Positions 17,816 through 32,968 are shown, numbered from the stretch's first letter. The stretch: 64,000 nucleotides of DNA from Cirrosporium novae-zelandiae (GCA_026023565.1 JAPETS010000015.1:310001-374000); one strand, 5' to 3'. Notes: generated by a model not told the origin, from the sequence alone. Numbers and translations are program-made.

Positions 17816-20800
17816 CTACTCGCTTCCTACCTCAGGCGGCTCCTCCCCTAACTCATCTGCCAGGGAGGGCATAACCTTCCTAGGACTAAAGGGCTCTTCC
17901 TCATCCTCCGTACCTATTTCCTCTTGGGGGCTAACACTGCCCCCGAGTATACTACTCTCATTGTCATCGCTCTCTTCAAACGCGCTAGCATTAAAGTTTG
18001 CAGCTTCTGCATCCTGATCATATGACCCCTTCCTCATTAACGGAGGGGTACTAGGCGGCTCTAGGGAAGATGGAGTATCGTCCTTATTCCCTAGTGGCCG
18101 AAGGGGCCGCATTTGTCCACTATATGACCTCAACGGTCGACTGCTAGTAGGTTGGCGTAGAGTTGGAATATCAACTGCCTTGGGTGTTTGCCTCAGGCTG
18201 GTACTTGGGGGAGTTAATAACCCAGCGAGAAGACCGTGCGAGGAGGAAGGCTTTGAGGGAGTCTGACTTCCGGTAGAAGCGGCATCGGAGCTGTTACTGG
18301 AGTGACGATCTCGGCCCTTTTGCCAGCTCCTCCAGGCAGCGGCAACACCCAGAGGAAGAGCACGTGGAGACGATACGACATTAGAGATATTTGCAAAGGA
18401 AGGGAAGGATTGCGTTCCAGACATAGCCTTTTCCTTTTCTTGTTGTTGCATTTCGAGATTGGCCTTAAGACGAATGGCTGCGTCCTTGGCGGCTTCTCTG
18501 TTGTATGACGGTGAAGAGAGCGTCCTGATGATATCTTGGAGGTCATCAATCCGAACACTAAGGAGCTCACGTAGCCAATTAACTTCGATTTCCTTCTCTT
18601 TCACCTTCCGAGGAGCCTCCTTGTCAACCTGGGAGAGTTCATTTTCGAGCTGCTCGATGCGAGCTTCACGCTCTTGAAGTTGCTCTTGGAGAACTATGAT
18701 AGATTCGCGTAGGGCTTGTGGAGAAATCCTTTCGGGCATATTTGTGAATACACTAGCGGTTGCTGTGGAATCTAGATTGGGGATTGGGGTAATTGTTTTC
18801 CCTGACACGGCTGCTTTAGCGGCAGCATTTGCAGCAGACTTAGCAATCTCGAGTTTCTCTTGCAGATGAACAACCTTATCTTGCATGTGTCTAGTCTTCT
18901 CGTCGGCAAGGTTCAAACGTTCAAGTAAATGAGCTTCGGTTCGCTGCTTATCCTCAGTGACATCCCGTAGTGTTCGAGCATGATGATCTTTCAGTTCCTC
19001 CAAAGTCATTTCATGGAAGCGATAATGCTCTTGCATGGCATTTTCTCTAGCTTCAGCAGCTTCTCGCAAAGCATTCTTCTTTGATTCTAGCGCTTCATCT
19101 AGTATCAAATCATGCCTTACTTTGGCTGCATCGGCATCCATCTTAGCCTTGTCCAATTGTGTTCGTAATAATATTGCTTCACTTTCGAAATGAGATTTGG
19201 ATGTATTAACCGAATGTTTGGCAGCTTCAATGTCAGCTTGCATCAACGCCTTGGTCCGCTGAACTTCCAATTTAGCACCCTCACGAGCAGTTAGGAGATC
19301 TCTTTCCAAGGCCGCAGCATGCTTCTGATGATCCAACGATTCTTGTCGAAGCTGGCTTGCTAATTCTTGAAGCTTAGTATTTTCTTGCTCATAGCGCTCA
19401 TTCGAGAATCGGAGCATTGCAGCCTCTCTAGCTTGGTCCTTCAACCCACGAATCTCAAGTTCTTGTCGCTCTCGTGCTTTGGAATTAGCGTTGGCTTGAG
19501 CTTTTAATAGATCGACCTGGGCTTGATATTCCTGATCTTTTCTCCTCCACTTGGCTTGGTCTTCGGCGATGTTCTGTGCAGCCACAGTCATATCTTCCTG
19601 GAGCTTGTCGAACTTGCTACGCAAGGTTTCCCGAGCCCTGAGACTGTCTTCCATGACATCCTTCATTGAATCTATTGTTCGTTTCAAGCTAGCGTTCTCG
19701 CCCTTAGTTTCCTGAATCTCCCCTTTCCATTCGGTCTTAGAAACTCTATACTCCTCTAGTGTGCCTTCAAGAGCAGAGTTCTTAACCGCCAGTTGCTCAC
19801 CAGCCTCTTTAAGTTGCTCAATTTCTTCTTCAAGGGATTCCGCATGATTCTGAGCGTCAATAAGCGCACGCTGTCGATCGTCATGGAAGTTACGTAAGCT
19901 TCGCTCGCTTTGTTCAGCAGCTTCGCGTTGTTGGGAGGCTTCTTCTTCGGCATTACTTAGACGAGATTTCATCTCCTCAAGCTCCTCTTCGACGGCACGG
20001 CGCTTCCTAGCTTCCTCTTGTGCTCTACTATCTGCAACCTTGAGCATACTTTCCAAGCCAGTGAGCTGCAGTTGCATCTTCTCTTCCACAGCAAGGTCGC
20101 GACTCCTGCTAACCGGATTATCTTTCATCAGGTTTTGGGCAACAATTGCCTCCTCAACAGCAGATTTTATCATCTCAGGATCAACCTTGGGAGTTGCCTC
20201 GACCGCGGAAGGAATCATTGTTTCTTTGAAGGCTACCAACGCTTCAACCATGGACTTAGGTACCATCGATTCTTTGAGAGCCGCGAGAGCTTCCAGGATC
20301 TCGGCAGATTCATTACGGGGTTGCTCCACTTTATTGAATGCAGTAAGATGAGCAGAGAGAGCGTCTAGAACAGCGGTTTTAATCAATTCTGGAGTAGATT
20401 GTTCAGTTTGTACTACGGTATTGTGAGCAGAAAGAGCATCGAGAACGGCTGTCTTGATGGCATCTGTCTTTCTTTGGCTTCGCTGCCAAGGGGATTTGGA
20501 TCGTGGTTGAACATCTACCTCGTCATCATCTTCATCATCAGCATCACTATGTACCACTTCAGCTGACATGCTTCTCCTATCTCGTCGGCTTGTCGAACGA
20601 GACGTAAGCATAACGAGCGACTTCTGCATAGAATCTAGAGCCTGCTCGAGTGGTCCTAATCTATGATCCAGGATGTTCCCAACAATATCATCAACACGAG
20701 TATCGAAGAAAGGTCCGCGCTGCTGGAGCTTGACGTCCTCACTCGGAGAGACAACACTATCCCAGTCGCTGATAGTAACATCTTCCGGATTATTGAGACG

Positions 20801-23800
20801 GTGAACAGGTGATTCGTATCTACGAATAGGAGAATCATCATACAAGAGCTGAGGCATGGTATCATCCTCAGGGCTTTGCTTAGTCTGTTGGTCGATATCG
20901 GTACTATCATGAGGCAGATGTTGATGAGTATCTAGCTTTCTAGGACTTGGGCTGGGTGCGTCGCTTCTCGGGTTGTACCTCTGATTTGGACCAAGGAAAG
21001 TTTCCTGCGTCAAATTACTCTCGTCCTGGCTAATCGGGCTGATCGGCTCCTCGTCATGAAGCTCTTCTGGTTCATCCAAATCCGAGTCTTCATCATTGAG
21101 ATGTTTCATGACAGCATCTATTTCGTCAAAACTTGGCTCAACTAGTGCCTCATATTTAAAGTTTCCACTTGCTGAGAAAGGAGCAGTTTCGTGTCGGTCT
21201 ACAGGCTCATCTAGATGCAAATCTGTTTCAACAGAAGCATCATGTTCTTCAAGTTCCTGCTCATATGCAGGTGGTGGAGAGGCTGCAGGCGAAGACGAGA
21301 ACGCAAACCGTGAGTCTTCTAGACCACCCTTTAGTATGGGCTGAGGAGTACCCTTCCGGGGGGATTTGACAGAAGTCATCTTCGGAGATGGTGAATTAGA
21401 TGCTGCGAAAGTGAAGGTACCGCTAGCGGCAAAAGTTACCGGTGCTGATTGTGACGACGAATTTGATTTCTCTGTATCAGATGCGCTTTCGAAAGTATAA
21501 TTCTTGATATCTTGCTTAGGCGAAATCTTGGCTTTACCCTCATCGGCAGTATTCTTGACCGCATTGTGGCTTAATACATCGTTTAGCATTGGAGGCCTTG
21601 CTGCATTGAAACTTGCGGCATCGTCTGTATGATCAAATTCAAACGGAGACCATTTATCCGGACTAGGTTTGTGATCGTCCTTAGGCTGAGCAGACTCTTT
21701 AGCCAGTGATTTGTGTTCAACTTCTTCGTTAGCGGTGTCGAGAGCAAGAGTAACCTTCCTTTTTTCTTGTCCAGCTGATCTGGGCCTTTGTGATTCTGGA
21801 GATCGTTGAGGTTTCAAGCTTTCTGGAACAGTCGTCGACTCAGCAAATTGTGGTTCCTGATCTTCAGCATCCGGTTCATGCCGAACTCTCTTAGTACGTT
21901 TATCACCCATTGATACTCTACCAGACCCATCTTCTAGATGCCCCTCTGATAATTTCTCTTCATTCTTCTCGGTATCCTCAGGCTTACGAATGGTGATAGC
22001 CTTTGATGCTTTGGGAGGTTTGACATATTGCCCAAAAGTAATATCACCGAACACATTGCTCTTGACGGTCTGTTCAGTTGCAAGATTGGCCTGAAAGTTT
22101 GGTGTATTTGGTGTTCCAGACGCTGGACCCCAATTTAAGCCATTTCCAGCCTGGAAAGCTGGTCCTGTAAAGTTAAAGTCGGATTTTGGCATGAAAGGTG
22201 CAGCGATGGCACTGGGTGTGAAGCTAGGTGCAGCGACATTGAAGCCTTTTGGAATACCAGGAGTCGAGTCCTGCCCTTCAGATTGCTCCTTAGCTTGGCC
22301 TAGAGGATTGTTCTGGGTCTCGGTTACGGGCTGGCTGATATTTGAAGAAGGTGGTTTTGGTTCGAAGTGGAACTCCTTGGCTTCGACATTGAACTTCGAC
22401 AAAGAGGGTTTTGGATGATGGCCAGATATAGTAGAGTTGTGTCTTTCTTTAGGCAAAACTGTACCTTCCCAGGGATTTGGAGCCGCCGCAGATTTAGCAT
22501 GCTCCTTTTGAAATTCGAATGCATCCTTGAATGCAGGCGAGTTAGATACACTGGGATTTGTAACAAGATCAGAAATCTCGCCCTCCTTAAGTTCTTCCTT
22601 TCTGAAAATAGCTTCTTTTCCTATTGGATGGTGTTGAGAAAGGGGATTTAGAGGGTCATGTTGTTTTCCGTTGTGTAGAGGACCTCTTAGATCATATATC
22701 TTCTCATCTTCTTGTAATTTCTCGTCATCCTCATCCATTTGCCGGCGAATCGATTCTTCTAAGTGATATTGAGAATCATCAATTTCTTTTTGCAATGTCT
22801 CACTTGCGCTCATCTGTTGATTCTGTACCGGCTCCTCCATATGATATTGTGCATTATCAACTTCATTTTGGAGATTCTGGCTGAGATTGTGATGATGACC
22901 GCGAGGAACTGGCTGAACTAGCTCTGGGCGATGGAATTCCGCTGGGGAGAAGCTACCTAACACGTCACCCGCACCTGTTTTGGATCGCATACGCTGGGAA
23001 TTCAATTTCAATTGTTGCTGTTGTTGCTGTTGTTGCTGCTGCTGTTGATCCAATATATGAGCCTGTAGCTGTTGCTGTCTCATTCGGGCTAGTAGTTCAT
23101 TTTGTTCGTTGGGCATCCCCGTGATGCCTGGAGAAATGTCGATAGATCCAGAACCCAATGCATGAGCAAGACTTGGATGAGTACCATGGAAAAATGGTGT
23201 GCTGCCTCTTGAACCGTCTTGCGATTCGAAGTATTGTAATGGTGACATTATTCCATTTGCAGGCGAAACGGCTGATGATGGAATTTGGAACGGCGATGGG
23301 AAAGACTTTTGATTCATGCCGAACGACACCGACCCCCTTGGAATATGAAGATTACTTGGGTGTACACCAGCATATTGGGAGGCGGGCGATGCAATTGAAC
23401 CGGTTGGGTTTGTAGAGGCATTGAATTGTGGAGAGAACGGATTTGGTGGACCCATTCCATGTCCACTGGCTCTGGAAGAGGTAGGCGGTGGTGGTGACAT
23501 CGATGGAAGTCCATGATGGTGTGCAAGTATCTGCTGTACACCTGGCAGTGAGGGTGTTGCACTGGCGCTGGCCGAGGGAGGTTCGTCACCAAAACTTACT
23601 CCTAAAGCGCGAAGTTTCTCTTCGTGGAGGAAATTCACGTAGGCGTCCCAGTCTCGTTGATCTGGTACGCTCACTTTATAATTGCCATTCTTCCATTCTC
23701 TTTTCGACTCTTCAGGATCTGGATAGACCAAACGGCTCTGGCCTCCAGCCTCAGCAATATCATTCCTATTTTGAAATTGAAATCCCATGGTATCATAACC

Positions 23801-25210
23801 CTCATCTCGCCATTTCTGTAACCTTGCTTCATTATCGGAAGGCATTAAAAGTTTAGGATGATTGCCTCCTGAACCCCTTTCATCATCAAACGGAAGCGCA
23901 ATTATACAAGCCTTGCCTCTCCATACAACACGTTTTCTAGAGCGTTGAAGTGGGGACGGTGACGATGACGAGACTCTTTGTCTAGCAGCTCCAAGAAGTG
24001 GGGGATGTAGTTCACTTTTTCGAGAGGCTTCCAGCTTGCCCTTCTCCTCGGCAGGAGGAGGTGGAAGTGGTTTATCAAATTCTGGATGATGCTCGTGTGA
24101 TTTCTCAAAATTTGAATTTTGATCCGAATGGTTGGAAGTTATCATGATTGATTTATAATCCTTCGATTCCCCGGATCCTTTCTTTGAGTGCCAAGAGCCC
24201 TCCATATGCATTGGATTTGATGGTGTTTGTTGATGATCCCCTTTCCTCAGCTCGGGGGCTGGTGTGGGATCCGCGTAAATGGAAGCAAACATATTGGGCG
24301 GTGAGCTAGGTGTTTGGTCTAGGTCGCCGGTGAATGTGTCCCAAAAGTCCGCTTGCTTAAGCGTAGCAGTACTGGATTGCTTGGGTTTATGGCGTCGAAT
24401 GCTAGAAGAGGCTTTCTCGTCTTCTGCTCGCTTTGCCTCCTGTCGTTCTAGAAAATTCTTCAAGGTCGGTGTCCTAAGCCCCTCCTCCTGTTGGTGTACT
24501 TTGTCAAGGCCCAGCCAGGGATTATCCTCAAAATCTTCGTGTTTCTCTTCAGTTGACTGCCAATCACTCTCAGCGGAATCGTCGCTCCACCAATTCCCAC
24601 GTTCGGTATGCTGTTGCCCTGAAAGATATTGGCGAATTCGAGCTGTCGTTACTTCACGTGAAGTGAGTCTCTTTTTCGAATCTAATACCGCACCAGCAAG
24701 AGCACGACCAAAGGTCCTTGAAGCGTATGACGAGCCTCCGTCAGTAGTAGATCCAGCCGATCTTACTGTGCCGGTTCTTCTCGAGCCTTTGACACGAAGG
24801 CTATTGTTCCGGCCCGGGGGCGATTCTTCCCCTGACTTGTAAACCGAAACGATTGTCGACGGAGCTCTAGAAGTAGCGCTCGGGAGAGCGTACGGAGATC
24901 CCCAGACGGCAGTATAATAGGCACTACTTGCGTCTGTTGGAGGATGTTCTACCGGAGAACCCGGAGTTTGAGGTCGATCCTCGGCAGGAGGCAATGTCAA
25001 TAGCTGTGGAAGAGCCGGGGAGGGTAATCGGTGGGCTAGATCTGCCGGAGAGGGAGCTGTCCAAAGACTAGCTGATCGCGAATGACTCCCTGTTGCGCAG
25101 GAAGACTTGGGAGAAGAAAGCACAGACACCGAATTTGGGGAAGCTATGAGGGCTGGATCAACAACATGTGTTAGTTGAATAATCGTGTCTAGTTGCAGAT
25201 GGAATGACAT
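17816..25210 (-). CDS. Large protein (up to 2464 aa): disordered N-half with PAM2-like motifs and polyQ, long C-terminal coiled coil, no motor domain (the type often auto-annotated myosin heavy chain-like)
   Basis: Uninterrupted 7.4-kb ORF. Heptad-rich E/K/Q/A region at about aa 1710-2260. Start uncertain (25210 vs 24292). Confidence 0.85.
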   Translation of the reverse strand: MSFHLQLDTIIQLTHVVDPALIASPNSVSVLSSPKSSCATGSHSRSASLWTAPSPADLAHRLPSPALPQLLTLPPAEDRPQTPGSPVEHPPTDASSAYYTAVWGSPYALPSATSRAPSTIVSVYKSGEESPPGRNNSLRVKGSRRTGTVRSAGSTTDGGSSYASRTFGRALAGAVLDSKKRLTSREVTTARIRQYLSGQQHTERGNWWSDDSAESDWQSTEEKHEDFEDNPWLGLDKVHQQEEGLRTPTLKNFLERQEAKRAEDEKASSSIRRHKPKQSSTATLKQADFWDTFTGDLDQTPSSPPNMFASIYADPTPAPELRKGDHQQTPSNPMHMEGSWHSKKGSGESKDYKSIMITSNHSDQNSNFEKSHEHHPEFDKPLPPPPAEEKGKLEASRKSELHPPLLGAARQRVSSSSPSPLQRSRKRVVWRGKACIIALPFDDERGSGGNHPKLLMPSDNEARLQKWRDEGYDTMGFQFQNRNDIAEAGGQSRLVYPDPEESKREWKNGNYKVSVPDQRDWDAYVNFLHEEKLRALGVSFGDEPPSASASATPSLPGVQQILAHHHGLPSMSPPPPTSSRASGHGMGPPNPFSPQFNASTNPTGSIASPASQYAGVHPSNLHIPRGSVSFGMNQKSFPSPFQIPSSAVSPANGIMSPLQYFESQDGSRGSTPFFHGTHPSLAHALGSGSIDISPGITGMPNEQNELLARMRQQQLQAHILDQQQQQQQQQQQQLKLNSQRMRSKTGAGDVLGSFSPAEFHRPELVQPVPRGHHHNLSQNLQNEVDNAQYHMEEPVQNQQMSASETLQKEIDDSQYHLEESIRRQMDEDDEKLQEDEKIYDLRGPLHNGKQHDPLNPLSQHHPIGKEAIFRKEELKEGEISDLVTNPSVSNSPAFKDAFEFQKEHAKSAAAPNPWEGTVLPKERHNSTISGHHPKPSLSKFNVEAKEFHFEPKPPSSNISQPVTETQNNPLGQAKEQSEGQDSTPGIPKGFNVAAPSFTPSAIAAPFMPKSDFNFTGPAFQAGNGLNWGPASGTPNTPNFQANLATEQTVKSNVFGDITFGQYVKPPKASKAITIRKPEDTEKNEEKLSEGHLEDGSGRVSMGDKRTKRVRHEPDAEDQEPQFAESTTVPESLKPQRSPESQRPRSAGQEKRKVTLALDTANEEVEHKSLAKESAQPKDDHKPSPDKWSPFEFDHTDDAASFNAARPPMLNDVLSHNAVKNTADEGKAKISPKQDIKNYTFESASDTEKSNSSSQSAPVTFAASGTFTFAASNSPSPKMTSVKSPRKGTPQPILKGGLEDSRFAFSSSPAASPPPAYEQELEEHDASVETDLHLDEPVDRHETAPFSASGNFKYEALVEPSFDEIDAVMKHLNDEDSDLDEPEELHDEEPISPISQDESNLTQETFLGPNQRYNPRSDAPSPSPRKLDTHQHLPHDSTDIDQQTKQSPEDDTMPQLLYDDSPIRRYESPVHRLNNPEDVTISDWDSVVSPSEDVKLQQRGPFFDTRVDDIVGNILDHRLGPLEQALDSMQKSLVMLTSRSTSRRDRRSMSAEVVHSDADDEDDDEVDVQPRSKSPWQRSQRKTDAIKTAVLDALSAHNTVVQTEQSTPELIKTAVLDALSAHLTAFNKVEQPRNESAEILEALAALKESMVPKSMVEALVAFKETMIPSAVEATPKVDPEMIKSAVEEAIVAQNLMKDNPVSRSRDLAVEEKMQLQLTGLESMLKVADSRAQEEARKRRAVEEELEEMKSRLSNAEEEASQQREAAEQSERSLRNFHDDRQRALIDAQNHAESLEEEIEQLKEAGEQLAVKNSALEGTLEEYRVSKTEWKGEIQETKGENASLKRTIDSMKDVMEDSLRARETLRSKFDKLQEDMTVAAQNIAEDQAKWRRKDQEYQAQVDLLKAQANANSKARERQELEIRGLKDQAREAAMLRFSNERYEQENTKLQELASQLRQESLDHQKHAAALERDLLTAREGAKLEVQRTKALMQADIEAAKHSVNTSKSHFESEAILLRTQLDKAKMDADAAKVRHDLILDEALESKKNALREAAEARENAMQEHYRFHEMTLEELKDHHARTLRDVTEDKQRTEAHLLERLNLADEKTRHMQDKVVHLQEKLEIAKSAANAAAKAAVSGKTITPIPNLDSTATASVFTNMPERISPQALRESIIVLQEQLQEREARIEQLENELSQVDKEAPRKVKEKEIEVNWLRELLSVRIDDLQDIIRTLSSPSYNREAAKDAAIRLKANLEMQQQEKEKAMSGTQSFPSFANISNVVSSPRALPLGVAAAWRSWQKGRDRHSSNSSDAASTGSQTPSKPSSSHGLLAGLLTPPSTSLRQTPKAVDIPTLRQPTSSRPLRSYSGQMRPLRPLGNKDDTPSSLEPPSTPPLMRKGSYDQDAEAANFNASAFEESDDNESSILGGSVSPQEEIGTEDEEEPFSPRKVMPSLADELGEEPPEVGSE

Positions 25211-26475
25211 GGGAAGCTTACAGTCCGTTTCGTCTGATTAAGCAGACGATGAACAATCGTCTGCGACTAGAAGCGCTTGTGATATTTCAGAGATACTTTT
25301 CCATCGGTTAGTTTTCGACCAGTTGGGGATATGATTTGTTGAGGTAGCTGTACATTACAGAGTACTCAAGGAAAATGCCGAAAAGGAGGTTATGTTGGAA
25401 GAGCGTCACACGAGATGAGATGTCGATAATAAAGGCATCTCACAGACTGGACTGTTTTTGATTATAACGAGACCAGAAGGCGATGAGATGGGATGTTCTT
25501 GACGCTCTCTCTCCCTGTCGCGAAACAATACTTTTGAGAGAGGGACGTGTCTCTTGGAGTAAGATTCGAGAAGGGGAGCACTTAGTCTTTAATTGCAGGG
25601 GTTATTATAATACTAGTACATAAATGGATAAATGTGCTCCTTCCCGATACCTAAATTGCCTTGGGGGAAGAGACGAAGAACATCAATTTTTGTTTCTTCA
25701 TTTTTACCCTGTTTGATATCGAACCAAGAATTATAATGATATAGAAATTTATGTTTTTTCTTTTGAATATTGTGTGATATCATTTTTACTTCATCAGGAA
25801 AACAGTGTGATAAAGAAATAATATAATTCCAACCACTAACTTATATAAAGGCCTCTTCCTACCTTCATCCCCTGGTCCTCCTCATCCACTTAAGCATAAA
25901 AAACTAATAGGGAACTTAAGGAATCTATTGGTCAGGCTTGCCCCTTAACCAAAATTTGCTTTTGATAATCTGCCAGCTGGCAAATCGACAACACGTATTT
26001 CCTAGGCATGAGTAATTTCTAAAATTGCAAATATCTTCTTATACGTTGTATAGAAATAATGTAGGTCGCCAACTTACCAAAACCAGTTTCCTGCACTATT
26101 AATTTCATCAACCACCCAACTATTATATGCCGAGCACCTCTATTGAGCACACGCTCCCCAAAGTAGTCTCTGTCTTTTTGAATCTGCTGTTTCCCAAAAT
26201 ATTCTGCTACCAATTCAAGCCATCCGATAATCCATGACATCAGAAGAAAGCCGAAGCAAAGTACTAAAATATGGTTGAATAAAAGTTTATCGGCACGAAG
26301 ACTCAGTCCACCCGTTAAATATTTCCAGACTTAACCTTCAATAATATATGTTCAAACCCTCCATATAAACGTTGCTGCAACCCACCTCTTCCTCCCTCAT
26401 GGCAAATAAGTTGAGGGAAAAAAAACTGTCTGTGAATTTGTCTTCTTAATGGTGGTGATTGCATTCAATTGAACA

Positions 26476-28854
26476 TTGTCCCATCAACTCTTCCCAACCA
26501 CCAACCCAGAGCCATCTAACTACATTTTGTCTTCTAATCCAGTTCAGCCTGGGCCCTATCAGGAATGGTTCTCTTCAATTGGCATATGCCAGCGAGACCA
26601 AGTAGGTTTGAGTCCTATTTCTGTGCTAAGAATTCCAACCAACAAGGTCATACCGGCATTGCGGGAATTCCGAAGGACGCTTGGAAGATGATAAGGACTA
26701 TATCGAAAGATAGTGAGATAGAGATCCGGGTTTCACTTTCGGCACATCGTTACTAAGTCGCATGTTCCAGATCGCATGTTCTAGGAAGGCCTCCGAGTAA
26801 TCCTATCGCCGTTGTCATACCCATCGCATGGCCGATGAGTAGCACAGGTAGTTGAATCCTGCCTGAGATGAACATATCGATGGGTTCCTAGCAGCTCGCC
26901 TTATTGAATGAAGTAGGTAATGCTCGATTCCCTGCAATATCGGTACCACAAAACAAATGCGTTCCTAAACTGTACAAAACCCGATGGAATACTTCGACCT
27001 ATCGCATGACTTTTAGCATTACCGACGAGCTGTTGGTAATAAGATGGATGGCGCAGGAAGGTTATTTTAGGATTCCAGCACTTCCTTCCATCCTCTACCC
27101 AGACATTCGTAGGTGGCTGTTCCATCTCCCGACTTCAGGGTCTCCGTCAACATGTCCTCGGAACATGTTGTGTAACATACAATCCGCCTTAACAAGGAAC
27201 CGTTCTTTTCGTCGAAAACATCAAGTAGAACTATCATTCAAGGCCGCCTACAGAGTTAACTTTAATGCCTTGTGATACATTTGACACAATTTTAGTGTCG
27301 ATGAGGTACCTATTCAGCCCAAGCAACGAACGGGCAGGTTTGATCACCCTAAAATCCCAACACCGCTATATCACAGTGCCCATGCCCTTCGACTTGGCAA
27401 TTCAAGAAGACTGTCTTCAGGAAGATGTATCTTAGCCGATAGCTGCCCTGAGGTGATTTAGGTATCTTCTCAATCTAGAGATTTTCCTTAAACACTTTGG
27501 GCCTTCAACTCGAAGCCAACATCCGAGGTCAGTGTTTTGACAAAAGAACCTGCCGTCAATCGCTTATCCTACGCGGAATTTTCTCCCGTCGATAATACTG
27601 AAATGTTCCAGCCAGCCTTCCCTGAAAAATTCGACCATACCGCTGCAAAGACATCATGTTCTAGCCATTCGATATACCTGGAATGATTTTCGATGTATAC
27701 GACCAGATATGTGCTGCCGATTTAAGGGGAAATGCGGTCAGTGCCTGGTGCCTAGTAAGAGTCGTTCATGTTGGATCCGAAGCTCTCCTGTTTTATGAAA
27801 TCTTCCCCCCTGGTCCTTCGAATCAACGGTAAGAGGCATGTCGGACATGTCTCTGGTCGGGAACGTGGGTCGAATCCTGCAATAACCCCCTGACTCGCGC
27901 AGGAAAGCGGCTGTCGGCGTCAACGGTTAACTTTCTGGTGGGCATTCATCATGGTCGAAATTCGCCACTGAGCACCGCCCCAATGTGGAGATGGATTCGA
28001 CTTGCGCATCAAGTTCCCAGGCAGGCGTAAGCAAGCGTCTTCAAGCAAAGGATGATCTTGGAAAATAGGGGATAGATATGTATGTCATTGAGGTAGAGTC
28101 GACTGATACCGGTTTGTGGCCAGAATTACAAAACCACACTCCTGATACCAGTCGACGCATAATCCAACCCCTTGAACACTCCTCAAGGAGGAAGGAGAAA
28201 ATAGATAGTGGCAAAGAAAACAGATGAAATGGGAAATGTTTCAAGAACTAAACGCGAATTCAGGAGGTCTTCATCCGTATTCTGAGCTTTCATGTGTGTC
28301 CTGGGTCCCAGATAGGAATACTCAATAGCGCTGGAATCCTAGAGCGTAGTACGTTGTGTCATCTTTGCGGTCATCGAATATACACGGGGCGGAGACTAAG
28401 GGTGCCACGGTTGTGTCTTCGTTAGTAACCAATGCAACACTGGAGCAAAGAGCCCAAGTCGGATAATGATGTAGCTATTTAGCCTCAACCTGGAAGTTAT
28501 ACCGTGCTGAGGCTCATGGCACTTCAATACGTCCTCGGACAGACGGGGTATGAGGTGACCATTGAAATGCTGGGGAGCCACCGACCGGGGGGGGGGGGGT
28601 GTGGTTAACCTCCAAAGCAGCGATGGATGCCAAGAGCGTAAGTTTTCCTCTTGTAATGCTTGCAGTATCTTAGGTTAAACGGTCCGACGATATCTGACCG
28701 CAACCGTGGGTCTGATGCGGGTCAATTATTCAATAATGTATCATTGATACCTTCCCCTGGTCGCATCGTTATCGATAGTTGTTTTGACTTGCAGGAAGTA
28801 AAGTGTTCCTGGGCAGTTCCCCTGGTAGGAAGTTTAGAGCGTCAGAAGCGCTAA
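26476..28854. pseudogene. Possible decayed gene or element remnant of unknown family
   Basis: Coding-like complexity and higher GC than the AT-rich flanks, but only short stop-broken ORFs on both strands. No family recognised. Confidence 0.3.
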
Positions 28855-29811
28855 CCCTTTAAATAGTAATCTGACGTCGGTTTTATTGATGGTAGTTTGA
28901 AGTAGAGTTTTTATGACACCTGGGGTTAATTAATGAAGTTTTCAATAGTTCTAGAAAGTTTTATATTGAGTAATCTGTCTACGCGGTCTGTCTCAAACTC
29001 TATACATATATATAATCATGCTTGTATTCTCCTCATTTTTTACCTTTTGGCCCACCGCTCAGGCCGTGGGTTGGTGTTACTAGCTACTGCCTAAGTCCCA
29101 ATATAAGGGAAACACGACAAACTGAACAGACACCAAAAAGCAAAGGTCGCAGAGAGATACACGTTACCGTCAATAAACATGTCGGACAGCCTTCCCTGTA
29201 GCCCATTTTCCATTCCTTCAAAGCAAAATATATTCCCGTAATCCTCAGTTACAGTGCCCGAAACTTAAATTCCAACATCCCGTAGTCATCAACCCCAAAC
29301 AGACAGAGGGAATTCAGCTAAGGAATCAACAGTGCAAGGGAAAAAAAAGACAGAATAAAACAAAATAAAACAGAGAGTGATTGATCCATTTCCCAATAGT
29401 TAATTGCCACCATTATTATTCCTAAGTCGTAGCCTCTTGGTCTCCATCCTCCATACAGAGGGCAAAAATTGTAGTACTAAAACAATGTCAAGAAGACAAT
29501 AACACAAAGAACGCCGTCGCTAGAAAAACATAAGAGAGAGCAGTCGAGTAGTATTACATTAACGGGTATAAGCTATGCAGTGCTTTTCTTTATAACGCAA
29601 TGCTCTAGGGCATCAACAAAATTACCTCGAAGGTGGGAAATGGCATACATTGTGCCAACATAGGATAGATAGAAGCACTTGGTCTGCAAAATTGCAGAAA
29701 TATCCTGCTCATACACTCCTTATATAGTATTCGCTGCCATAGAACCTGATAAACGCAAACATGCGGACATCGAATACATAGTGCTATTAGATCATGTCAG
29801 AGGACAACATC

Positions 29812-32115
29812 TCAAGGCAAACCAAAGTCATCAGCAGTAGAGTTTGAAAAAACAAAGCTCCTCGGCTTTTGCTCTCCAGCTAGCTGCTTTGCCGCAAAAG
29901 CATGGTTTTCTTTTTGATTTGGAAATTCTTGCATTTGGATTTCCATGGGTTTCTGGTTTGGCTCGACAGAAAACTCATGTTGAGTGAAATAAGGATGTGC
30001 AATCGGATATTGTGGATAGTACATGGCGATAGCTTGAGGGTTGTCCGAAGAAAAGTGTGGTGCTTGTTCGTTAGAACGAAGGCCGTATGTTCCATTATCA
30101 TGAAAAACCGTATTCGCGGCTTGATAATTGACAGAGGAAATGTGGCTTGGTTGAGGCATGTTAATCGTGGGAGGTATCGAATGAAATTCAGGCGAGGTTA
30201 GAGGCGCATCTGGCCAGCTACTATCTGTAGGGAGACCAGCGGAATAAGGAGGTGTATAATTTTGGAAATTGGCATATTGCGGCTGTGGTGGAGCCGACAA
30301 TGGAACAAACTGCTGACCATTGAGGCATTGACTCTGACCCTGTAAGAGATTGCCGTGAGGGGTTACCGGGGGTGTTTGAACTCTGGGCATGGATACAGAG
30401 GTTTCAGAAACGGTTCCAGAATATGCATCGAGCATACCCATTTGCGAAGGGTCGAATGGCTGACGTACTCCATATGCGGGAGATGATGCCGGGGCATTGG
30501 ATGATTTGGAAACCGGAATTGTAAATTCGGTGGGTGAACTCGTCGTTGGCGGTGTCAGGAGGTCATCCAAGGCATCCGCTGACTGGAAAGTAGTAGCAAG
30601 TGGAGAGCGTTGTGATGAGCCTGGGTAGCTCTTCTGGACGCGTCCGTTCATGACATTTAGACTGTGGCCTGTGGATTTAATCCTGCGGACCGAGTGCCCT
30701 GGCATAGGATAACCCTTTCCAGTGGGTGACAGAGAATTCGGTCCGAATGATCTACTGCGAAGAGCTGCCGGTCCAAGAGCAGCTGGACGTGGACGTTTTC
30801 TCCTCGCAGCAATGTCCAAATGGCCTTCTGGCCTCTTGAAGACATCGGAGTCGTCAAGTGGCTCAGGAGAATATGCGTTTGGAATCTGAAGATGCGATTG
30901 CAACTGGTGGTTCATTTGCATATCTTGTTCATCCGCGGACGATTGACCATTTGGTTCAACAGAATACTGCTGGATTGGAGTATGCTGCTCAGATGAAATC
31001 TCTGGTTGTTTTGAATCGATTTCAATACCATTAAAGTCAAGGGCCAGTTCCTCCGTGTAAGAGGGATGTCTTTGGAAAGACATTGGAAAAAGGTGATTGT
31101 TTACATCGCTTAAAGATTGAGATGTCATTGGATCCGTAAAGGTAGGCTCGGTATCAGTGAACCGAAAGCCTGAACATTGCAGCCAATCTTGTCCATCAAG
31201 GACCTGATCAAAATCTGGATTTATAGGTGAGGGATTGGAAGGCGAAGCATGCATTGGAAGTGAAAAAACCCTGGACATGCAAAATGGATCGTTCATAGGA
31301 AGAATAGGGGTACAGTTCGCAGAAGACGTAGCACTGCTTCCCCAATCCGAGAAAGTCTTCTCAATTGAACTTTCCGAGACAGATGGAGCCATCATACTTG
31401 TTGCGATGAGAGTATTTTCGCCTGGGGCTGTGGTACTCTCGGTCTGTCCGTCATAGTCTGCATCACACTTACTAGGAGCAGAATCCATTGCGGAAATGGC
31501 ATTCTCAAAGGTGTAGCATGCCTCTCGGGTTTGCTCGCTTTGTTCATTCCGACGAGCGTCACCAGTCGCTAAGTCGAGGGCATCCGATGAGGTGTCCGAT
31601 AATTTTGCTTGGCTTGGTGTTGCTGATGATTCGCTAGCGTGTTGACTGGAATTCGATCTGTAGTTTGCCAACTCAAACTCTTCTCTTTTCTTATCTTGTT
31701 TCGCCTTTGCCCGTCGATTTTGGAACCAATTCTAAAGCATGTTAATTAATCATATCTAGTAGACTCCAAAGATTGCTCTTACATTGACGCGCGGTATTTC
31801 AAGTTCAAGCTCAAATGCGAGCTTCTTTTTGTGAGCGCTATTTGGTTTTGGGTTATCCTGAAACTCCTTTTCTAACCTAGCAGCTTGCTTCTTGTCTAAG
31901 CGCGGCCTTGTCGTAATTTCATATTCCTCCATCTCGTCTGCGATGATTATATCTGGTCGCTCATCATAGCGGCCTGGAATTGGCATACGCCCATCCATAC
32001 CTGGATGAAGTTGCGGAGCAGATAAGGCGAGAGCGTTAGCGTAGAGCGAGGCTTGGTCGGTAGGTCTAGTAGGAATGAGGCCATATGGGGCGCGATGATA
32101 TTGAACGAAAGCCAT
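29812..32115 (-). CDS. hbxA: Homeodomain transcription factor, HbxA/Hbx1/Htf1 type (intron 31732..31782)
   Basis: RPRLDKKQAARLEKEFQDNPKPNSAHKKKLAFELELEIPRVN|NWFQNRRAKAKQ homeodomain, IAARRKRPRPAALG motif and C-terminal FVFSNST. Confidence 0.85.
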
Positions 32116-32968
32116 CTAGAAAATATATGGGATGGCTTCGTTGTTGGGGGGGGAAATTGATTGATTGATTTATTGGGAGGTGTGTCGGTTGAAATTAAAA
32201 TCCGGGGTATATATTACTGCCGGTAGAGATTATCGATGAATCGCGATGCGATGCAGGGAATTGTACTTCGGATAAGGTGATGTTACTGGGTTTTTTGGTG
32301 TTGATTATAGGGCTCAGGAGGATAGGATGCCAATGAGCGACTGGCGAATTAAGACGGGTAGAATTATACGACAACGACGGCGATGGTGAATATAGGATCA
32401 ATTGAAAAACGAGTGACTTGGAGCAGGCAAATAGGGCCTGGAGAGAAAGAAGGCAACAATAGATGGGAGAAAGAATAATGGCGACGAAAGAGCGACTAGG
32501 TAGGCAATGGGAAAGTAAGTAAACGAGAGGAAGAGGAGAGGCTTGAAGTGTGTGAAGTGTGTGAAGAGAAAGCGTGGGCGCGAGGACAGTAGGAAGGGAA
32601 GGAACAAGGGCACCAAAAGGCTAAAGTCTTGTCCTACTAAGTACTGGGCGCTAGGCGTGGGCTGTTGGTTGTGGGTTGTGGCCTAAGCCTTGGCCTTGGA
32701 TTCCGGTGATTCGTGAAAAGATGGGCGGGTTCGGGGCATTTTGAATTTCGGGGAGGGGCGCCATTTTGGGTACAGCACCAACAACTGGTACTTTAGTACG
32801 AAAGGAACTTTTAGGTGCTGACGATTTGCCAGCTGGAGCTCACAGTTGTTAGTTAGAGAGTACTTAGTTAATGGCACAAATAGGATGAATGGTCAGAGTG
32901 TCGACCCTCCCCCCTCCCCCCTCCCAAGAACCCCCTCTCTCTCTTCCTCCATGTCCGTTTGATTTGGC

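Follow-up and report, generated by a model that had tools for sequence, protein, structure and literature searches.

An AUG-free coding stretch conserved across Pezizomycotina lineages suggests two translation starts in a coiled-coil protein gene

How can several hundred nucleotides of an open coding frame be free of ATG in all three frames, and where does the translation of such a gene begin? These questions are raised by a gene on the minus strand of a 64,000-nt stretch of Cirrosporium novae-zelandiae DNA (GCA_026023565.1, JAPETS010000015.1:310001-374000), which is referred to as the window and whose positions are counted from its first letter. The gene encodes P0001, a member of a family of long coiled-coil proteins. 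The comparative analysis described here points to the probable answer that the gene (17816-25228, minus strand) combines an N-terminal extension of about 289 amino acids (aa) initiated at a non-AUG codon with leaky scanning to the AUG at 24292.

The ATGs of the minus strand were located in order. ATG 25210 (frame 0, context CTTCCCATGTCA, C at -3) is followed by ATG 25167 (frame +1) and then by ATG 24292 (frame 0, Met307, context CCCAATATGTTT, A at -3). The 872 nt at 25164..24293 (-) contain no ATG in any of the three frames, and the open reading frame (ORF) at 17816..25210 (-) is open throughout its 2464 codons. The ATG-to-ATG spacing of 875 nt is the longest in the window on either strand, and the runner-up gaps are 624 nt (minus strand) and 558 nt (plus strand). 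The window and the downstream coding sequence (CDS) were used as the background for ATG density; the window has 1199 ATGs on the minus strand and 1122 on the plus strand, and the CDS after Met307 has 144 ATGs per 6474 nt. The initial annotation had reported this ATG-free open stretch and the -3 bases of both ATGs, all of which were verified, and the peptides it had quoted (SSAYYTAVWGSPY, GNWWSDD, and TLKQADFW) are present in the translated ORF. The dozen or so ATGs that it had expected at random agree with the 11.8 predicted from mononucleotide composition. When the 872 nt were shuffled with their dinucleotides preserved, 7.07 +/- 2.15 ATGs arose, and shuffles with zero ATG occurred at a frequency of 0.0004 (5000 shuffles). 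The mean number of out-of-frame ATGs was 8.6 in codon shuffles and 5.9 in synonymous resampling of the same protein, where zero was reached in 0 of 5000 in each case. The ATG gap is real; chance is an unlikely explanation for it and local composition does not explain it. Dinucleotide depletion resembling that of repeat-induced point mutation was rejected since a first-order Markov model of the dinucleotides in the region itself still predicts 7.1 ATGs. An antisense gene (a plus-strand ORF of 187 aa at 24279-24842) was also rejected since the constraint sits on the minus-strand frame.

The features of the gene and the evidence for each of them are listed below, where group A and the covariance model R1 are those described further on.

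25287..25304, minus strand: possible upstream ORF (uORF) of 5 codons (sequence and list of upstream ATGs)
25242..25264, minus strand: conserved 8-bp leader hairpin (fold, covariation, and model R1)
25238..25240, minus strand: in-frame TAA four codons upstream of the ACG (sequence)
25226..25228, minus strand: candidate near-cognate start codon ACG (ACG or GTG at the identical position in 8 of 8 group-A lineages)
25153..25221, minus strand: predicted phase-1 intron of 69 nt (splice and branch signals, homologous place in 13 lineages)
24293..25152, minus strand: ATG-free coding stretch, the exon-2 part of the N-terminal extension (ATG counts, ratio of nonsynonymous to synonymous substitution rates (dN/dS), and codon-choice test)
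24290..24292, minus strand: first AUG of the predicted spliced mRNA past the leader, proposed start of a short form of 2158 aa (conserved M, context, and density step)
17816..24289, minus strand: CDS common to both forms (conserved blocks and normal ATG density)

Residues 1-460 of P0001 match 112 homologues (E<=1e-3, best 7.4e-48) with lengths of 1632-2609 aa, and the best homologue is 37% identical. The homologues are named from Eurotiomycetes, lichen-forming classes, Dothideomycetes, and others; no Sordariomycete orthologue is among the named homologue matches. Full-length similarity places the protein in a family of Pezizomycotina coiled-coil proteins with PF26916, where the precomputed PF26916 assignment is found on 110 of the 112 homologues. 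The first 700 residues of 113 sequences were aligned with MAFFT (fast mode). The Met307 column consists of M in 80 sequences, L in 11, and a gap in 11, and the neighbouring columns are variable. The blocks YYTAxWGSPY, FTxDWIxQYL, ERxNWWSDDS, WLGL, and TLKQxDFW are conserved upstream of Met307, and KPLPPPP and WRGKACIIALP are conserved downstream of it. Met accounts for 66 of 26,769 residues (0.25%) at query positions 47-306 compared with 775 of 44,680 (1.73%) downstream, and 54 of the 112 sequences have no Met between positions 47 and 306. Twenty of these 66 Mets share one column in an Aspergillus-like group, 27 lie within about 25 columns of Met307, and the other 19 are mostly predicted start residues of shorter gene models.

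Orthologous DNA was identified by scanning metagenome contigs with an alignment of the conserved N-terminal blocks, which matched 144 stretches, 30 of which were confirmed as loci. Loci with identical cores were merged and near-identical loci were dropped (L002 and L029 equal L001; L005 and L015 equal L004; L018 equals L017; L010, L012, and L013 resemble L011; L016 resembles L014; L022-L027 and L030 resemble L021). L007 and L028 were left out because they do not have the 5' end. The 13 distinct lineages that were retained are the window, L001, L003, L004, L006, L008, L009, L011, L014, L017, L019, L020, and L021. Their taxonomic breadth at the DNA level rests on the resemblance of the loci to named proteins. 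The closest retained pairs have a synonymous divergence (dS) above 1, so that synonymous sites are effectively independent.

The lack of ATG is shared among these lineages. Before any splicing model was applied, ATG density was 0-3.2 per kb in the part of the stop-to-stop ORF that precedes the conserved Met vs 10.8-29.1 per kb downstream in all 23 rows. In the spliced models of the 13 lineages, each of the 8 bins that precede the conserved AUG averages 0-0.23 ATG per 100 nt and each of the 16 bins that follow it averages 1.38-2.25, and the step is sharp and located exactly at the AUG equivalent to Met307. Synonymous resampling over the 13 lineages gave an expectation of 62.8 out-of-frame ATGs in the extension where 12 are observed. 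The same resampling of downstream control windows gave 370.5 expected vs 440 observed, and the method is if anything conservative because the controls exceed their expectation. The avoidance is also readable in codon choice. Within the extension, T is the third base in 6 of the 100 NAY codons (Asn, Asp, His, and Tyr) that precede a codon with initial G, where it would create an ATG, vs 216 of the 409 NAY codons that do not (about 6% vs 53%; Fisher p=6e-20). The corresponding counts are 502 of 783 vs 652 of 1244 in the downstream CDS and 0 of 7 vs 20 of 29 in the extension of the window alone. The test of codons ending in A before TG was not significant (5/31 vs 494/2023). The deficit of out-of-frame ATGs and the avoidance of NAT before G point to selection at the nucleotide level that goes beyond Met residues. 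These comparisons show that the extension has been kept ATG-free across lineages by selection at synonymous sites.

The same stretch is constrained as protein. The extension is open in all 30 loci, its conserved peptide blocks are found in 113 proteins and 15 translated loci, and its dN/dS is 0.08-0.27 (6 pairs), where the downstream CDS has 0.06-0.21 in the pairs with estimable dS. The alignments thus show the extension as translated coding sequence under protein-level constraint. The alignment of orthologues that had been proposed in the initial annotation as a check therefore gave the predicted outcome, which was purifying selection together with an ATG depletion that affects all frames and reaches as far as a conserved Met.

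The start contexts differ as well. At the conserved AUG, position -3 is a purine in 15 of 15 distinct sequences (11 with A and 4 with G). Of the 13 ATGs that remain in the spliced extensions, 11 have a pyrimidine at -3 (nine C, two T), one has G, and one has A. One of the 13 is in frame (L004) and 12 are out of frame; 10 of these 12 open ORFs of 5-12 codons, and 11 end before the conserved AUG while one overlaps it. The strong context of the conserved AUG and the weak contexts of the residual ATGs fit what a scanning model predicts.

If the conserved AUG starts a short form, where does the long form start? Among 14 distinct sequences with a complete 5' end, nine (L001, L003, L006, L007, L014, L017, L019, L020, and L021) have no in-frame ATG upstream of the conserved Met in the stop-to-stop ORF, which is independent of splicing. 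Signals of a short intron are found at the 5' end of the ORF in 13 of 13 lineages, with predicted lengths of 50-214 nt. The 3' splice sites were first chosen by eye, and a rule that takes the first AG at least 7 nt downstream of a CTRAY/YTRAY branch site gives the same site in 10 of 13 lineages. Once the predicted intron is removed, the sequence from the nearest upstream in-frame stop to the conserved Met is free of in-frame ATGs in 12 of 13 lineages, and L004 keeps one. The predicted intron of the window (25221-25153, minus strand) is a phase-1 intron of 69 nt that reads GTAAGC...AACTAACA...CAG, with ACTAAC as a perfect branch site; the predicted introns of 7 other lineages share this position and phase. 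Both ATG 25210, the 'Met1' of the ORF, and ATG 25167, which is out of frame, lie inside it. The 69 nt are divisible by 3 and the frame runs through them without a stop, and the window is without an in-frame AUG start only if this intron is spliced.

The lineages fall into two groups by the sequence around this intron. Exon 1 of group A (8 lineages) ends in [ACG or GTG][GAC or GAA][T or G]|GT, where a near-cognate codon lies two codons before the donor in 8 of 8 lineages (ACG in 4, GTG in 4). In all eight the codon is flanked by a purine at -3, which is G in seven lineages and A in one, and by G at +4, and the predicted splice leaves it in frame. The near-cognate codon of the window is ACG at 25228-25226 (-), in the context GAA ACG G with G at -3 and G at +4. 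The in-frame TAA at 25238..25240, four codons before this ACG, leaves no in-frame start further upstream in exon 1. Group B consists of L011, L014, L017, L019, and L020. Four of the five have an ACG with a purine at -3 located 2-6 codons into exon 2, and G is at +4 in only 2. The conserved ACG/GTG is therefore judged from these alignments as a better candidate for the long-form start than ATG 25210. The predicted products in the window are 2447 aa from the ACG, with the first Met at residue 290, and 2158 aa from AUG 24292, and the 867 nt between both codons in the spliced mRNA contain zero ATG.

The leader upstream of this codon exhibits a conserved structure. Eleven of the 13 lineages have a predicted hairpin of 8-11 bp, which precedes the near-cognate codon by 10-13 nt in group A and the donor by 15-23 nt in group B. 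The hairpin of the window (25264-25242, minus strand) has 8 bp, GCAGACGA - TTGTTCA - TCGTCTGC, and lies 13 nt upstream of the ACG, with a fold of about -14 to -15.5 kcal/mol and a z-score of -1.9. In the hairpin alignment of 8 sequences, 98.4% of the cells are paired and 5 of the 8 pairs have changed on both sides (14 cells). The observed pairing and covariation were reached in 0 of 500 shuffles, and slid controls pair at 20-42%. The MAFFT alignment of the leaders misaligned the Aspergillus-like hairpins and was left out of the counts. A covariance model (R1) has the hairpin as its sole sense-strand match in the window. R1 matched only the lineages from which it was built and L010, which is a near-duplicate of L011; it missed the hairpins of L004, L006, and L009, which differ in sequence, and found nothing in L008 and L021. 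No Rfam family matches in 24200-25700. The G-U pairs on the sense strand and the lower scores of the model on the reverse strand favour an element that acts at the RNA level. The spacer that separates the hairpin from the start codon (25229-25241, minus strand, TTAATCAGACGAA) repeats the motif CAGACGA of the 5' arm, and the 3' arm in the window could therefore pair alternatively with this spacer. Exon 1 of L003 shares AGACGAA without the complementarity, and no conserved alternative fold was found.

The reading that probably accounts for these observations is that two proteins are made from one mRNA. Scanning ribosomes would pass the leader hairpin and a minority would start at the ACG at 25228-25226. 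The 69-nt intron, which begins 4 nt after the ACG, would have been spliced out together with ATG 25210 and ATG 25167, and the product would be the form of 2447 aa with the conserved extension. Ribosomes that pass the ACG would scan the 867 nt held AUG-free in every frame by selection and would start at the first AUG, 24292, to produce the form of 2158 aa. The stretch is taken to be scanned as well as translated because pure elongation would leave out-of-frame AUGs unselected, and it is more than an untranslated region (UTR) because a UTR alone would escape protein-level constraint. The features by which a non-AUG extension with leaky scanning is recognised are found here: a conserved frame open upstream of the first AUG, no in-frame AUG start, a conserved near-cognate codon with a purine at -3 and G at +4, and out-of-frame AUGs that are few, weak, and short. 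The splicing of the intron, the use of the ACG, the existence of both proteins, and the control of their ratio are parts of the reading that we infer. The core of the initial annotation, that the stretch serves both as coding sequence and as an AUG-free scannable leader, thus gains strong comparative support. Its start of the long form at ATG 25210 is not supported and is probably wrong, as nine of the 14 sequences have no in-frame ATG and 25210 lies inside the predicted intron of conserved position. Non-AUG initiation, which was listed there as a mere option, is the part brought forward by the conserved ACG/GTG in good context.

Several observations weigh against the two-protein reading. The desert is not absolute, since 8 of 13 lineages keep 1-3 ATGs in the extension, two residual out-of-frame ATGs open ORFs of 35-37 codons, and one in-frame Met is found in the extension of L004 and of the Aspergillus-like group. 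The intron is a prediction whose splice sites were initially picked by eye; a canonical branch site is missing in L001 and L008, and the rule chooses another 3' site in L019. The intron of the window is in frame and contains an in-frame ATG, so that an AUG-started form from a retained intron is possible. The base at -3 of the candidate codon is G in 7 of 8 lineages and not the optimal A. The five group-B lineages have no near-cognate codon at the end of exon 1, and L019 has no ACG candidate. The hairpin is not predicted in L008 and L021, and it lies upstream of the start, unlike the arrangement known to boost non-AUG starts.

A first alternative, which we regard as improbable, is that the short form is made from a second, internal transcription start site (TSS) and that the ATG-free stretch is the 5' UTR of the nested transcript. 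5' UTRs free of upstream AUGs are ordinary, as in the 32739-32115 (-) gap just upstream of the start codon of the neighbouring homeobox gene in the window, and a conserved AUG in strong context fits this alternative equally well. It would need ATG-free sequence solely downstream of the internal TSS, yet the depletion is uniform over eight 100-nt bins and begins at the splice junction; it also leaves the missing AUG start of the long form and the conserved near-cognate codon unexplained. A nested TSS and the non-AUG model with leaky scanning are not exclusive and can coexist.

Another alternative, likewise improbable, is that the long form starts at AUG 25210 because the intron is unreal or retained, and that ribosomes leak past 25210 and 25167 to AUG 24292. 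Consistent with this, 25210 is in frame and has C at -3, the 69-nt segment has no stop, ATG 25167 opens an ORF of just 7 codons, and the stop-to-stop ORFs of L008, L009, and L011 likewise have an in-frame ATG close to their 5' ends. However, 9 of 14 sequences have no such ATG and yet their extension is under purifying selection, and the predicted intron contains the ATG in 4 of the 4 lineages that have it. The ATGs in predicted introns that are in frame and open (4 of 23) are in no excess over chance, and the intron of the window, with GTAAGC, a perfect ACTAAC, and CAG, has the position and phase found in 7 other lineages.

The last alternative is that a single protein is made whose N-terminal 300 aa are disordered and poor in Met, with Met307 conserved as a residue and the lack of ATG compositional; Met is generally rare in disordered regions and this region has a high content of S, T, A, and P, but NAT is avoided just before codons that start with G within the same region (6/100 vs 216/409), the dinucleotide and same-protein resampling controls reject composition, and elongation alone gives no selection against out-of-frame AUGs, so that this alternative is the only one of the three that is effectively excluded.

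Beyond a passive leak, the hairpin, near-cognate codon, phase-1 intron, and AUG-free leader together may constitute a tunable switch. We put this forward tentatively and consider it rather unlikely. In such a switch, the hairpin would re-form behind the scanning complex or bind a factor and, together with short uORFs, would set the usage of the near-cognate codon, and start-codon stringency or the status of eIF2 would shift the ratio of the long and short forms. If true, it would be an upstream-structure mode of near-cognate control that has not been described so far. The upstream ATGs of the window are at 25304, 25355, 25438, 25621, and 25683. ATG 25304 is the last before the desert in the spliced leader and opens the possible uORF of 5 codons at 25287..25304 (-), ATG GAA AAG TAT CTC TGA (MEKYL*). 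L004, L006, and L009, which are Aspergillus/Penicillium-like, have a conserved uORF of 7 codons, M[RV]QHSG[QR], just 5' of the hairpin and about 40-60 nt upstream of the end of exon 1; MEKYL of the window is unrelated to it, and no uORF is common to the remaining lineages. Such short uORFs could make the choice of start dependent on reinitiation.

The gene models of the family in databases disagree because the extension has no AUG start. About 17 models (among P0116-P0133, 1880-1975 aa) begin about 25-45 residues before KPLPPPP, which is the conserved Met. In further models the start is an intronic ATG or a GTG/TTG codon translated as Met. Several metagenome-derived models start with 'M' where related loci encode L or V (MYYTAAWGSPY vs SLYYTAAWGSPY in L003), which is probably due to alternative start codons called by a prokaryotic gene finder. 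Nine models (P0011, P0014, P0019, P0027, P0042, P0049, P0054, P0062, and P0068) are fused to an upstream GH17 (PF00332) gene. The GH17 neighbour of several of these fused models was not found in 25300-29800 of the window. This interval of about 4.5 kb upstream of the gene contains ORFs of at most 127 aa on both strands and is an unusually long gene-poor stretch.

The CDS shared by both forms consists of a long low-complexity middle and a C-terminal coiled coil and has normal ATG density. The label 'myosin class II heavy chain' that many database homologues carry is a coiled-coil misnomer and was rejected; Pfam scans of P0001, P0024, P0033, and P0002 found no myosin motor (head) domain. The Pfam scan of the window protein gave only sub-threshold matches to CITED, PAM2, and GAS and no real domain, the ESM Atlas search gave no usable match, and searches of the literature library turned up neither a paper on this coiled-coil protein family nor the phrase 'AUG desert'. 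The low-complexity middle has 12 consecutive glutamines at residues ~735-746 of P0001 (~23000, minus strand). It also has PAM2-like motifs, FNVEAKEFHFEP (residues 937-947, ~22400-22370, minus strand) and the nearby FNVAAPSFTP, which are below the Pfam threshold (PF07145, 13.2 bits vs a cut-off of 20); precomputed PF07145 is found on six homologues. These motifs give a hint of possible binding to poly(A)-binding protein. The combination of PAM2 motifs and a coiled coil may resemble that of Ustilago Upa2.

The second-longest ATG gap in the window (32115-32739, minus strand, 624 nt) runs up to the start codon in the first exon of the homeobox gene, whose exons are at 31756-32115 and continue at 29812-31731. 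This gap looks like an ordinary 5' leader free of upstream AUGs because no long in-frame ORF precedes the homeobox ATG, and it is a contrast case to the coding ATG desert.

The closest known system is cpc-1, the CPC1/GCN4 homologue of Neurospora crassa and other Pezizomycotina. Its extension of about 180 aa starts at a conserved ACG, where -3 is A and +4 is G, and is supported by toeprinting, reporters, and ribosome profiling (Ivanov et al., 2017, PMC5487733). Both genes belong to the same subphylum and both exhibit a conserved in-frame extension upstream of the main AUG and a near-cognate ACG that combines a purine at -3 with G at +4, and the dN/dS of the extension is below 1 in both (0.348 in cpc-1, 0.08-0.27 here). 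Candidate uORFs are found upstream here in some lineages; the cpc-1 leader has two AUG uORFs, one overlapping the extension, together with several near-cognates (PMC5487733). The gene studied here differs from cpc-1 in its extension of about 289 aa, the 867 nt that are AUG-free in all frames, the phase-1 intron 4 nt past the start, the covarying hairpin before the start, and the unrelated protein family, and in being known from sequence alone.

The human non-AUG extensions have 15-300 codons with a median of 51-65, and those without out-of-frame AUGs were read as pairs of C-terminally coincident isoforms made by leaky scanning (Ivanov et al., 2011, PMC3105428). The present gene resembles that set in its conservation upstream of the first AUG, its lack of an in-frame stop, its near-cognate codon in good context, and its lack of out-of-frame AUGs. 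It differs from the set in being fungal, in a length at the upper end, and in the direct test of synonymous codon choice over 13 lineages. If the reading is true, the extension would be among the longest conserved non-AUG extensions. In structure-assisted non-AUG initiation, as cited in the same paper (PMC3105428), a stable structure lies about 15 nt downstream of the start. The conserved stable hairpin is also close to a near-cognate start here; however, it lies 10-13 nt upstream and, in group B, it tracks the donor and not the ACG.

On these comparisons, the best reading is that the gene belongs to the known class of non-AUG extensions with leaky scanning, as an unusually long and well-marked member, with the upstream hairpin and the start-proximal intron as probable additional conserved elements beyond that class. 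It would offer a clean case of dual-start translation in filamentous fungi in which AUG avoidance can be read in synonymous codon choice, and the test of NAT before G might become a general screen for leaders that are both translated and scanned.

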